From Candidatus Bathyarchaeota archaeon (GTDB lineage Archaea; Thermoproteota; Bathyarchaeia; TCS64), in the NCBI GenBank assembly GCA_043826455.1, contig JBDRQD010000055.1, positions 177-64,176 on the forward strand: a DNA stretch of 64,000 nucleotides, written 5' to 3'. Both the position numbers and the translations under genes were made by a program. The notes beneath the pieces are model-generated. The model saw only the letters and a program-made list of their open reading frames with translations, was not told the DNA's origin and searched no databases. Positions 14,375-21,130 of the stretch are shown in pieces (position 1 is the stretch's first letter; each line of letters opens with the position of its first letter).

Positions 14375-15676
14375 ATGATGAAGCCAGTAATGGTTATCGG
14401 CGGCGGGGTAGCGGGAATCCAGGCGGCTCTGGACCTGGCCGACAGGGGCCTCAAGGTCCACCTTGTGGAGAAGACACCCAGCATAGGCGGCGTCATGGCC
14501 CAGCTTGACAAGACGTTGCCCACCATGGACTGCAGCATATGCATCCTGGCCCCCAAGATGATCGAGTGCTTCAGGCACCCCAACATAACCATCCATACCC
14601 AGAGCCAGGTGAAGGAGGTGAGTGGTGGAGCCGGAGACTTCGGCGTCAAGGTGCTCAAGGAGCCCCGGTCGGTGGACGAGGCCAAGTGCACCGGCTGCGG
14701 AATATGTAGCCAGAAGTGCCCCACCAAGGTGAAGGACGAGTGGCAGGAGGGCCTCACGACCCGGAAGGCCGTGTACATAATGTTCCCCCAGGCCGTGCCC
14801 CTCACCGCCACCATCGACAGGGACAACTGCCTCTACTTCCAGAAGGGGATATGCCAGGTCTGCAGTAAGGTCTGCTCCGCGGGGGCCATCGACTACACGC
14901 AGGAGGCCGAGGAGATCGATCTCAATGTTTCATCCATAGTCGTCGCCACCGGGTTCCAGGAGTACGACCCGGCGGAGCTGAAGGAGTACGGGTACGGCAG
15001 GTTCAAGGACGTCCTCACGGCCATGGAGTTCGAGAGGCTGGTCTGCGCGTCCGGGCCCACGGGCGGCCACCTCAACCGCCCCTCTGACGGCAAGCTGGCC
15101 CACAGGGTCGCCTTCGTCCAGTGCGTGGGCTCCAGGAGCCACAAGAAGGGCTACCCCTACTGCAGCAGCGTCTGCTGCATGTACGCCACCAAGGAGGCGG
15201 TGCTCATAAAGGAGCACGACCCAGGCTCGGAGGTGAACGTCTTCTACATGGACCTCAAGGTCTTCGGCAAGGGCTTCCAGCAGTTCGTGGACAGGGCCAA
15301 GAGCCACTACGGCGTGAACTATATCCGCGGTAGGCCCGGGGAGATCAGGATGAACCCCCTCACCAAGGACCTGACCATATGGTACGAGGACACCAACACA
15401 GGCGACGTATCCAGCATGGAGGCCGACATGGTGGTGCTATGCACAACCATGATTGCTAGACCCGAGAACAAGGAGCTGGCCCGGGTCCTGGGGCTGGAGC
15501 TGGACGAGTGGGGCTTCTTCAAATCCCTTAACCCTTTAACGAACCCCGTCGAGACGGGGATGCCGGGGGTTTTCCTGTGCGGGTGCAGCCACGGCCCCAG
15601 GGACATCCCGGAGTCGGTGGCTGAGGCCAGCGGCGCGGCTGCTTGCGCCGCCGAGGTCGCCAGGAGGTTCATGTGA
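14375..15676 (+). CDS. hdrA: HdrA-like FAD module with inserted ferredoxin domain (lacks the HdrA N-terminal Cys domain and C-terminal ferredoxin domain)
   Basis: VIGGGVAGIQAALDLADRG (FAD fold), GGVMAQLDKTLPTMDCSICILAPKM, CTGCGICSQKCP, and VQCVGSRSHKKGYPYCSSVCCMYATKEA. Confidence 0.85.
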   Translation: MMKPVMVIGGGVAGIQAALDLADRGLKVHLVEKTPSIGGVMAQLDKTLPTMDCSICILAPKMIECFRHPNITIHTQSQVKEVSGGAGDFGVKVLKEPRSVDEAKCTGCGICSQKCPTKVKDEWQEGLTTRKAVYIMFPQAVPLTATIDRDNCLYFQKGICQVCSKVCSAGAIDYTQEAEEIDLNVSSIVVATGFQEYDPAELKEYGYGRFKDVLTAMEFERLVCASGPTGGHLNRPSDGKLAHRVAFVQCVGSRSHKKGYPYCSSVCCMYATKEAVLIKEHDPGSEVNVFYMDLKVFGKGFQQFVDRAKSHYGVNYIRGRPGEIRMNPLTKDLTIWYEDTNTGDVSSMEADMVVLCTTMIARPENKELARVLGLELDEWGFFKSLNPLTNPVETGMPGVFLCGCSHGPRDIPESVAEASGAAACAAEVARRFM

Positions 15677-17358
15677 TGAGCGAGAAGCCAAGGGTAGGCG
15701 TCTTCGTGTGCCACTGCGGGATAAACATAGGTGGCTACCTGGACGTACCGGACGTGGTGAAGTACGCTGAGACCCTGCCTGACGTGGCCTACGCGGAGGC
15801 AAACCTGTACACGTGTTCAAGTGACGGCCTCCAGAAGATCAAGGAGGCTATAAAGAAGTACGACCTGAACCGGGTCGTCGTCGCGTCCTGCACCCCCAGG
15901 ACCCACGAGCCCCTGTTCCAGGGTGCCTGCGAGGAGGCCGGCCTCAACAAGTACGTCTTCGAGATGGCTAACATCAGGGACCAGTGCAGCTGGGTCCACA
16001 TGCACGAGCGCGATAAGGCTACGCAGAAGGCAAAGGACCTTGTACGCATGGCCGTGGCCAAGGCGCGGCTGCTCACCCCTGAGGAGGAACCCGAGATCGA
16101 TATCCAGCCCATCGGCATGGTGATAGGTGGCGGAGTCTCGGGGCTAACGGTGGCCCTATCCCTGGCCGACCAGGGCTTCAAGGTTCATTTGGTGGAGAAG
16201 GAGGGCAGGCTGGGCGGGTACCTCAACAAGCTGGACAAGCTGTTCCCCAGCAACATGAAGGCCGAGGACGTCATCAAGCCCCTCATCCAGCGTGTTAAGA
16301 GCTCGCCGGACATCACAGTCCACCTCAAATCCACGGTGACCGACGTGAAGGGCTTCATCGGCAACTTCGACACCGAGATCACCACGGGAGAAGAGTCCCA
16401 GCTCCTCAACGTGGGCACCATCGTCGTCGCCACCGGAGCCGACTACCTAGACCCCAAGGGGCTGTACGGGTACGGCGAGGTGGAGGGAGTCGTGACCCAG
16501 TTGGAGCTAGAGGAGCTCATGAAGGAGGGCAAGCTGGGCAAAGCCAAGACCACGGTCATGATCCAGTGCGTCGGGGCCCGCATCGAGGAGAGGCCCTACT
16601 GCTCCAGGGTATGCTGCTCCGAGGCCATGAAGAACGCGACGCTGCTGGTGGAGGAGAACCCCAGGCGCGACGTGTACATCCTTTACAGGGACCTCCAGAC
16701 CTACGGCCTGGAGTACACGGCGCTGGAGTGGGACGCCAAGAAGAAGGGCGTCAAGCTGATCAAGTACGACGTAGAGATGCCCCCCGAAGTGACGAAGGGT
16801 GAGAAGGGGCCCGTGGTGAAGGTATTCAGCCCCCTGCTGGGCGAGGAGCTGACCATCGAGGCCGACACGGTGGTGCTATCCGCGCCCCTCATACCCAACG
16901 AGGAGAACAAGAGGCTGTCCCAGCTGCTGAAGGTGCCCCTCAACTCCGACGGCTTCTTCTTGGAGGCCCACGTGAAGCTGAGGCCCCTGGACTTCGCCAC
17001 CGACGGAGTCTACGTATGCGGGACCGCCCACAGCCCCAAGGAGGTGGCCGAGAGCCTGGCCCAGGCAAGAGGCGCAGCATCCAGGGCCGGGATACCCATG
17101 GCCAAGGGCAGGCTCAAGACCGCGGCCATCACCAGCGTCGTGGACGAGTCCAAGTGCAGCGGCTGCGGCACCTGCATAGAGCTCTGCGCCTACAACGCCA
17201 TCACCAAGAACGAGAAGAAGCTGGCCCAGGTCACCTCCGCCGTCTGCAAGGGCTGCGGCGTATGCGGGGCCAGCTGCCCGGAGAGGGCCATAACCATGAG
17301 GCACTTCACCAACGAGGAGCTGGAGGCCCAGGGCCTCGCGGCCCTCAAGGAGGCATAA
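15676..17358 (+). CDS. hdrA: HdrA-like protein: HdrA N-terminal Cys domain + second FAD/NAD-fold module + C-terminal 2x[4Fe-4S] ferredoxin domain
   Basis: [68 protein letters not shown] and [12 protein letters not shown]. ATG 15676 overlaps the upstream stop (TGATG). Confidence 0.85.
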   Translation: [560 protein letters not shown]

Positions 17359-21100: not shown

Positions 21101-21130
21101 CGAGCCGCCCTGCAGGAGGTGAAGGCATGA
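18128..21130 (+). CDS. hdrA: Fused two-module HdrA (collinear with 14375..15676 plus 15676..17358)
   Basis: 1000 aa. The N-half has [53 protein letters not shown] and [11 protein letters not shown]. The C-half has [53 protein letters not shown] and [12 protein letters not shown]. Confidence 0.9.
   Translation: [1000 protein letters not shown]

Follow-up and report, generated by a model that had tools for sequence, protein, structure and literature searches.

Split and fused versions of a two-module HdrA encoded side by side in an Mvh-Hdr operon of a Bathyarchaeia archaeon

We analyzed a 64,000-nucleotide stretch of DNA, hereafter the window, from contig JBDRQD010000055.1 of a Bathyarchaeia archaeon (assembly GCA_043826455.1). 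Within it, one operon encodes HdrA, a subunit of heterodisulfide reductase (Hdr), both as two adjoining genes (modules 1 and 2, at 14375..15676 and 15676..17358) and as a single protein of 1,000 amino acids (aa) (18128..21130). Based on their domains, cofactor ligands, ancestry, and gene neighborhood, we think it likely that these are two non-redundant, anciently diverged versions of an asymmetric double HdrA (type II), one split and one fused, and that in each of them modules 1 and 2 pack like the protomers of the HdrA homodimer and form one bifurcation circuit. Asymmetric HdrA dimers show how modules of flavin-based electron bifurcation have been rewired outside methanogens. Here, one enzyme core is present in its presumed prefusion state (two genes) and, next to it, in its postfusion state (one gene), both under purifying selection. 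They form a convenient natural pair for the effects of covalent fusion on assembly, on the second flavin (Lys in the split version, Thr in the fused one), and on partner choice through two MvhD adaptors.

Domain layout, cofactor ligands, and proposed module pairing

An earlier note on this DNA had proposed that the split pair is collinear with the fused protein, and pairwise alignment agrees. Residues 12 to 415 of split module 1 match fused residues 14 to 408 at 48% identity (E = 2e-137), and residues 1 to 559 of split module 2 match fused residues 442 to 997 at 54%, a similarity that, by alignment, is far beyond chance. The open reading frame (ORF) coordinates and the clean stop/start junction given in that note were also borne out. 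The junction reads AGGAGG TTC ATG TGA TG A, with the stop codon TGA at 15674-15676 and the start codon ATG at 15676-15678 overlapping by one base (TGATG) and an AGGAGG ribosome-binding site at 15662-15667, ahead of the second split ORF. One figure needed correction: the 571 aa previously assigned to module 2 count the ORF from an upstream TTG (15643), whereas from the ATG at 15676 the protein has 560 aa, like its orthologues (555 to 570 aa). As also noted before, each version is followed by its own MvhD, at 17362-18126 after the split pair and at 21127-21558 after the fused gene.

The unusual distribution of domains that had been described is evident both in the motif columns and in a domain-resolved comparison with the solved HdrA of the Mvh-Hdr complex (5odc_A). 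The fused HdrA aligns with 5odc_A at E = 6e-216 in three segments of permuted order: fused residues 7 to 369 correspond to the thioredoxin-reductase (TrxR) domain with its inserted ferredoxin (5odc_A residues 146 to 510), residues 444 to 595 to the HdrA N-terminal cluster domain (residues 2 to 153), and residues 811 to 995 to the end of the TrxR domain and the C-terminal ferredoxin (residues 467 to 650). In both versions, module 1 consists of a TrxR domain that binds flavin adenine dinucleotide (FAD), with a DCxxC motif and an inserted 2x[4Fe-4S] ferredoxin, and has neither the N-terminal domain nor the C-terminal ferredoxin. Module 2 begins with the N-terminal cluster domain, continues with a second TrxR/FAD domain that has neither DCxxC nor an inserted ferredoxin, and ends with the C-terminal 2x[4Fe-4S] ferredoxin. 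Pfam scans, alignment, and ligand checks place split module 1 (433 aa) as A6-like and split module 2 as A12-like. The fused protein has two Pyr_redox_2/NAD_binding_8 stretches (module 1 at ∼1 to 430, a linker at ∼420 to 445, and module 2 at ∼445 to 1000), so that two TrxR domains lie in one chain with an A6-like N half and an A12-like C half, as in type II (A3-like) HdrA; the split genes are its unfused equivalents. The canonical type I (A1) set of domains in one chain is absent from all three HdrA proteins of the window.

Cofactor ligands follow the same division. Split module 1 carries DC53xxC56 (the Cys194/Cys197 equivalents), the HA4-type cysteines 250, 263, 267, and 268, Lys273 (the K409 equivalent), and E220, and split module 2 carries the N-domain cysteines 12, 14, 72, and 104, the HA4-type cysteines 298, 309, 313, and 314, Lys319, and C-terminal ferredoxin motifs at 494 and 524. 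In the fused protein, module 1 has C55/C58, E217, HA4 cysteines 247, 260, 264, and 265, K270, and inserted-ferredoxin motifs at 107 and 154; module 2 has N-domain cysteines 453, 455, 513, and 545, HA4 cysteines 734, 745, 749, and 750, Thr755 in place of the Lys, and C-terminal ferredoxin motifs at 928 and 962. Among related sequences (the split and fused clades described below), the C194/C197 equivalents, the inserted-ferredoxin cysteines, and K409 are kept in 10/10 split modules 1 and in every fused N half that covers those columns (22 fused rows start after the C194/C197 columns), and the K409-type Lys of module 1 is present in all sequences. Every module 2 has the HA4 cysteines. The N-domain cysteines are likewise kept throughout, except that one of the four varies in 5/63 fused rows, as are those of the C-terminal ferredoxin, except that one is Asp in 12/63 fused rows. 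No module 2 of either clade has a Cys at the DCxxC position. The Cys197-type cysteine thus occurs in module 1 only and the N-domain cysteines in module 2 only, and this complementarity is conserved across both clades.

In canonical HdrA, the partner protomer supplies one ligand of the N-domain cluster, Cys197, and low-potential electrons cross this cluster on their way from FAD to the inserted ferredoxin. Input from MvhD takes the C-terminal ferredoxin as its route, and the connection to HdrC and HdrB is made by the TrxR-domain cluster (Chadwick 2022, PMC9012536). Since Cys197 and the inserted ferredoxin are found only in module 1, and the N-domain and C-terminal ferredoxin only in module 2, each pair of modules would hold only one complete circuit. 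We infer the geometry of this pairing from homology to the solved HdrA and from the published description of BamE, which belongs to the class II benzoyl-CoA reductase (BCRII) of Geobacter metallireducens. A preprint calls BamE, a protein of ∼1,000 aa, a “fused HdrA dimer” with a domain permutation and places the bifurcating FAD in TrxR1 (Lys280, Cys59/Cys62) and a nonbifurcating FAD in TrxR2 (Gln768) (10.64898/2026.04.10.717634). The window's K270, C55/C58, and T755 are at places matching Lys280, Cys59/Cys62, and Gln768, with BamE taken as the preprint describes it and a Desulfosarcina widdelii homologue serving as its proxy. The earlier suggestion of an intramolecular pseudodimer is in keeping with the Cys197/N-domain complementarity, with the BamE description, and with a predicted structure: AlphaFold2 modeled the fused chain at a pLDDT of 82 and a pTM of 0.83, with a well-ordered linker between the modules, and the top Foldseek matches of this model were canonical HdrA chains (TMt 0.73 to 0.88).

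The electron path and substrates that we infer for both versions are as follows. The N-domain [4Fe-4S] cluster of module 2 would be completed by the Cys197 equivalent of module 1, next to the module 1 FAD with its K409-type Lys. Electrons from MvhD would enter via the C-terminal ferredoxin of module 2 and bifurcate at the module 1 FAD, from which low-potential electrons would reach ferredoxin by way of the intermodule cluster and module 1's inserted ferredoxin, and high-potential electrons would pass through the HA4-type cluster of module 1 to HdrC, HdrB, and a disulfide. The FAD and HA4-type cluster retained in module 2 are probably structural or nonbifurcating, given that this FAD would be without a low-potential exit. 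The fused HdrA, the short MvhD, the third HdrC and HdrB copies, and MvhG and MvhA would make up an H2-coupled Mvh-Hdr unit, and the split pair, the long MvhD with its winged helix-turn-helix (wHTH) tail, and the first and second HdrC and HdrB copies would make up a second unit.

Several points weigh against this scheme. The K409/E356-type pair is kept in split module 2, where the Lys (Lys319) is found in 11/11 members of the split clade, and Lys is also present in 49/63 fused C halves. At this position the window's fused protein has Thr755, and Thr, Asn, or Ala is found in the Mvh-linked fused proteins from Bathyarchaeia and from some Thermoplasmata; both module 2 sequences of the window, split and fused, have the E356 equivalent. 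A Lys/Glu pair in both halves has been taken to indicate two possible bifurcation sites (Lyu 2025, PMC12054007), and the second FAD may therefore have a catalytic role. Moreover, both TrxR domains keep an HA4-type cluster and three HdrCB pairs accompany two HdrA units, so that a stoichiometry of one circuit and one HdrBC fits poorly. The pTM is only an indirect measure of the module-module interface, and the BamE structure was available as preprint text, with the sequence comparison made via the bam-type proxy of D. widdelii.

Gene order, apparent cassette exchange, and the two HdrA units

We compared the operon with related loci (L-numbers; G-numbers denote sampled genomes and C-numbers contigs of the source genome). 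The order of one or two HdrCB pairs, module 1, module 2, long MvhD, fused HdrA, short MvhD, HdrCB, MvhG, MvhA, and HycI recurs in Bathyarchaeia (L001, L002, L004, L008, L011, and L051), and its core from module 1 to the fused HdrA recurs in Thermoplasmata (L009, L013, and L022) and in an Asgard archaeon and an unclassified relative (L018 and L020). Both the split and the fused state are thus found repeatedly across Bathyarchaeia, Thermoplasmata, and Asgard archaea, and the same neighborhood was recovered independently from three distant split module 2 proteins. A more complex array was seen on a metagenome contig (L081:1358-11483), with an HdrCB fusion, a module 1-like gene, a 669-aa HdrA, an MvhD-HdrCB fusion, module 1, module 2, and a long MvhD.

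The long MvhD (17362..18126, + strand, 254 aa) has its MvhD/FlpD domain at residues 8 to 130 (Pfam FlpD, 1.4e-48), followed by matches to HTH families. Its tail of ∼115 aa, helical and winged-HTH-like, is shared with good conservation by 12 orthologues (Bathyarchaeia, Asgard archaea, and Thermoplasmata). The tails from other phyla align well with that of the window, yet none had a significant HTH match in Pfam scans. The gene is invariably found between an upstream HdrA unit and the fused HdrA, including in L012, L027, L020, and L009, where the upstream unit is a fused one too.

Within this conserved order, the split genes have a history of their own. Module 1, module 2, and the long MvhD of L001:4658-8459 and L011:919-4735 are only 55 to 57% identical to the window's 14375-18126, compared with 78 to 95% for the flanking HdrC2B2, fused HdrA, and HdrC3B3. 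The three genes appear to have been exchanged as a cassette inside an otherwise conserved operon. L001 is also without HdrB1, the short MvhD, and MvhA, and most of MvhG and of HycI is missing as well (relative to window positions 11949-12990, 21119-21543, and 23084-25699). The deletions are clean in a collinear alignment; L001 is a single coassembled metagenome-assembled genome (MAG), so that an assembly artifact is possible and the case is anecdotal. Since the short MvhD is lost together with MvhG, MvhA, and HycI, it would appear to be tied to the hydrogenase.

These observations bear on an alternative in which the split heterodimer and the fused pseudodimer are two cores of one assembly, bridged by the wHTH tail of the long MvhD, fed by a single MvhAG, and with three HdrBC as exits. 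Bathyarchaeia, Thermoplasmata, and Asgard archaea all have the genes in one unvarying order (upstream HdrA unit, long MvhD, fused HdrA, and short MvhD), the strongly conserved tail belongs to a protein that always sits between the two HdrA units (fused upstream units included), and a single hydrogenase serves two HdrA units. In addition, the wHTH of BamF docks another module in BCRII (cryo-electron microscopy preprint 10.64898/2026.04.10.717634). We nevertheless regard such a supercomplex as unlikely: adjacency of genes is no proof of physical association, both HdrA units persist in L001 without MvhGA and the short MvhD, and hence without a hydrogenase in cis, and exchange of the split cassette independently of the fused gene suggests loose rather than tight coadaptation of the cores.

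A more speculative extension, to which we give little credence, would make the array a two-core bifurcation supercomplex of nonmethanogenic archaea. The wHTH tail would tether a heterodimeric core of the ancestral type to the hydrogenase-bound fused core, and additional HdrBC ports, served by the retained second flavin and HA4 sites, would act on a disulfide other than that of coenzyme M, possibly on a lipoyl-GcvH-type carrier, which is suggested by GcvH and LplA genes flanking the operon in two relatives.

As a separate observation, two relatives (one of them L082:3082-4615) have a gene for a GcvH-like lipoyl carrier beside the Hdr/Mvh operon, and one of the two has a lipoate-protein ligase (LplA) gene there as well. 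GcvH was sought in the window and is absent from it; the GcvH homologues of this genome are on other contigs (C48, C61, and C46). By analogy, the flanking genes hint that Hdr may act on a lipoyl-protein disulfide, as has reportedly been proposed for sHdr and for Culexarchaeia.

Ancestry and integrity of the split pair

The trees of the two modules support the reading of two anciently diverged versions. Modules 1 and 2 were excised from every HdrA-like ORF of 80 related loci, and one tree per module was built and rooted with the genome's canonical HdrA-MvhD proteins (quick IQ-TREE runs, with support from the Shimodaira-Hasegawa-like approximate likelihood ratio test [SH-aLRT] only). True split sequences from Bathyarchaeia, Thermoplasmata, an RBG euryarchaeote, and Asgard archaea formed one clade (SH-aLRT 96 for module 1 and 92 for module 2); all fused sequences grouped in its sister clade (95 and 97, respectively; joint node, 98 to 99), and each of the two clades spans several phyla. 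Because the split sequences of several phyla form one clade sister to all fused ones, the window's two versions are, on these trees, deep, ancient paralogues. Second fused copies in the upstream position (L012, L009, L027, and L020) were placed in the fused clade, and the more divergent split pairs L040, L072, and L029 on deeper branches. Based on these more basal split pairs, and in agreement with the single fusion of Lyu 2025, the split state is probably ancestral and the fused form the product of one fusion event, with the direction taken from quick trees.

Could the two versions instead have arisen recently and locally, either because a duplicated fused gene was broken in two or because a duplicated split pair was joined? 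In favor of this, the genes adjoin each other in collinear form, and the TGATG junction looks like a stop/start made by point mutation. Such an origin is nonetheless very improbable. The versions are only 48 to 54% identical to each other, against 81 to 96% for orthologues in other Bathyarchaeia; both module trees put a split clade of three phyla as sister to all fused sequences; the second fused copies of other lineages sit in the fused clade; and the basal split pairs suggest that the split state came first. Recent fission or fusion of neighbors is contradicted by the module trees and the identities. The earlier view of the two as side-by-side paralogues therefore stands as regards their shared, unusual domain distribution, but not as the outcome of a recent local duplication or fission.

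The split pair is intact, and the proposal that it is not a pseudogene proved sound. It retains every Fe-S ligand, both GxGxxG motifs, and the K409/E356 equivalents, and the ligands are conserved in all 10 to 11 members of the split clade. The second inserted-ferredoxin motif of split module 1 is spaced C-x7-C-x2-C-x3-C, an odd spacing that occurs clade-wide and also in the BamE-type homologue. Ratios of nonsynonymous to synonymous substitution (dN/dS) against Bathyarchaeial orthologues are 0.12 to 0.16 for the split genes, 0.08 to 0.12 for the fused gene, and 0.08 to 0.14 for the long MvhD. Stand-alone proteins of the module 2 type (555 to 570 aa) that are ≥63% identical to that of the window fall into at least 120 clusters (90% identity), and three archaeal phyla have kept the split state. 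A degenerating, nonfunctional duplicate, for which one could cite the interruption relative to the fused gene and the odd cysteine spacing, has a negligible chance of being correct, since the ligands and motifs are retained, the spacing is shared by the whole clade and the BamE-type homologue, orthologues of the same length are numerous, and a ribosome-binding site precedes the second ORF; ligand conservation together with dN/dS rules it out.

The trees also contained variants of ∼1,500 and ∼1,100 aa (L017:5696-10240, L071, L038, L069, L072:9962-14452, and L076), whose C half falls in the fused clade and whose N half is much longer or different; these are probably HdrL or NfnB/GltD-insert types.

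Known HdrA systems, operon genes, and host genome

The novelty that had been implied for this locus largely falls away, as its architecture matches a well-described HdrA subtype. Tandem HdrA5/6 and HdrA12/13 and fused HdrA3/4 have been reported, with a complementary Cys197 and N-domain that is interpreted as making the members of a pair a heterodimer or the fused protein its “own heterodimeric partner” (Chadwick et al., PLoS Biol 2022, PMC9012536). Type II HdrA (A3/A4) and its unfused relatives A6 and A12 correspond to these fused and tandem forms; type II has been described as a fusion of A6 and A12 that took place once, and as lacking biochemistry (Lyu et al., Microbiol Spectr 2025, PMC12054007), and HdrA-HdrA fusions are frequent in TACK and Asgard archaea (mSystems 2024). 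The architecture is therefore already published, and the locus is not a new kind of enzyme. In Chadwick 2022, Lyu 2025, the mSystems 2024 paper, and the BamE preprint, we did not find stated that the split clade is sister to all fused sequences, that the array of split pair, long MvhD, and fused HdrA crosses phyla, or that the cassette is exchanged. These are refinements only and mildly new.

The window shares with type II, A6, and A12 HdrA the two TrxR domains, an A6-like N half without N-domain or C-terminal ferredoxin, an A12-like C half, and the complementary Cys197 and N-domain. The known proteins are usually clustered with HdrBC and MvhD, and our trees agree with a single ancient fusion. 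There are also differences. The Lyu and Chadwick surveys were limited to methane- and alkane-metabolizing archaea, whereas the window comes from an MCR-less Bathyarchaeia genome, and, unlike the surveyed type II sets, its conserved operon holds a fused and an unfused form together, along with a dedicated long MvhD. The fused C half of the window has Thr for the K409-type Lys, which is kept in both halves according to Lyu 2025, and the order of the halves given in the text of Chadwick 2022 is opposite to that of the window.

Function is known for two fused HdrA cases, BamE and that of Moorella thermoacetica. The long MvhD with its wHTH-like tail resembles BamF, the MvhD-type adaptor of the BamE system, which has an extra wHTH part. 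In contrast to that system, the operon encodes no AOR-type BamB/C tungstoenzyme, no BamGHI, and no BamD-type fusion (HdrB and HdrC are separate), there is no selenocysteine, and the electron donor would be an Mvh [NiFe]-hydrogenase. The fused homologue of the D. widdelii bamBCDEF-type locus (L054) is 47 to 49% identical to the window's fused HdrA and nests inside the fused clade. In Thermodesulfobacteriota loci (L031 to L060; e.g., L054:9881-13051), an in-frame stop lies exactly at the Cys197 equivalent and the ORF restarts at query residue 59, which is consistent with selenocysteine at this position. In M. thermoacetica, the isolated MetFV-HdrABC-MvhD complex (Mock 2014, as reported in Chadwick 2022, PMC9012536) has a fused two-domain HdrA with complementary loss of Cys197 and N-domain. 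By this secondhand description it is of the same fused type, and the window's operon differs in having no MetF or MetV and in being hydrogenase linked.

Compared with the MvhAGD-HdrABC complex of hydrogenotrophic methanogens (5ODC and related entries; Wagner et al. 2017), the operon encodes all six subunit types with the same cofactor motifs, and the HdrA domains align. Canonical HdrA is, however, one 650-aa chain with all four domains that forms a symmetric homodimer with two circuits, whereas in the window the domains are spread over two unlike modules with one proposed circuit. MCR alpha (PF02249) was not found in the 97.7%-complete genome, with positive controls, which makes the heterodisulfide of coenzymes M and B (CoM-S-S-CoB) an unlikely substrate; the disulfide is probably a different one.

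All genes from 11477 to 26419 are on the + strand and abut or overlap. As far as can be told from the genes alone, the Mvh-Hdr set is complete, with MvhA, MvhG, MvhD, HdrA, HdrB, and HdrC adjoining in the operon. Upstream of the split pair lie HdrC copy 1 (11477..12037, 186 aa; two CxxCxxCxxxC motifs, Pfam Fer4_8/9/17), HdrB copy 1 (12034..12924, 296 aa; Pfam CCG x2 with two complete five-Cys motifs), which is the copy missing from L001, HdrC copy 2 (12969..13496, 175 aa), and HdrB copy 2 (13493..14371, 292 aa). Downstream of the fused HdrA are the short MvhD (21127..21558, 143 aa; Pfam FlpD, 1.2e-55), HdrC copy 3 (21560..22066, 168 aa), and HdrB copy 3 (22063..22923, 286 aa). By Pfam scan and motif check, two full CCG motifs are present in 3/3 HdrB copies and two [4Fe-4S] ferredoxin motifs in 3/3 HdrC copies. 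The operon continues with an MvhG-type [NiFe]-hydrogenase small subunit (22926..23894, 322 aa; Pfam Oxidored_q6), an MvhA-type large subunit (23891..25348, 485 aa; Pfam NiFeSe_Hases), and a HycI-type hydrogenase maturation protease (25355..25801, 148 aa; Pfam HycI), after which a MobA-like gene was identified by Pfam scan, also on the + strand. Rfam and tRNA scans of the window returned nothing relevant.

The closest loci are in Bathyarchaeia MAGs (86 to 96% identity). The fused form of ∼1,000 aa is very common, with at least 8,000 candidates at E ≤ 0.001, and occurs in Bathyarchaeia, Thermoplasmata, Methanomassiliicoccales, Archaeoglobi, Asgard archaea, Ethanoperedens, Thermodesulfobacteriota, Chloroflexota, and others. 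The 560-aa split form beside the fused one was seen in only a few genomes besides the source genome (G093 and G141) in a 201-genome sample of the phylum. The source genome itself is unusually rich in Hdr modules: it encodes four further HdrA paralogues of ∼780 to 800 aa with a C-terminal MvhD fusion (C78:2045-4420, C60:12477-14816, C66:50136-52535, and C66:52505-54841), and a second Mvh-like hydrogenase adjoins the HdrA pair on C66.

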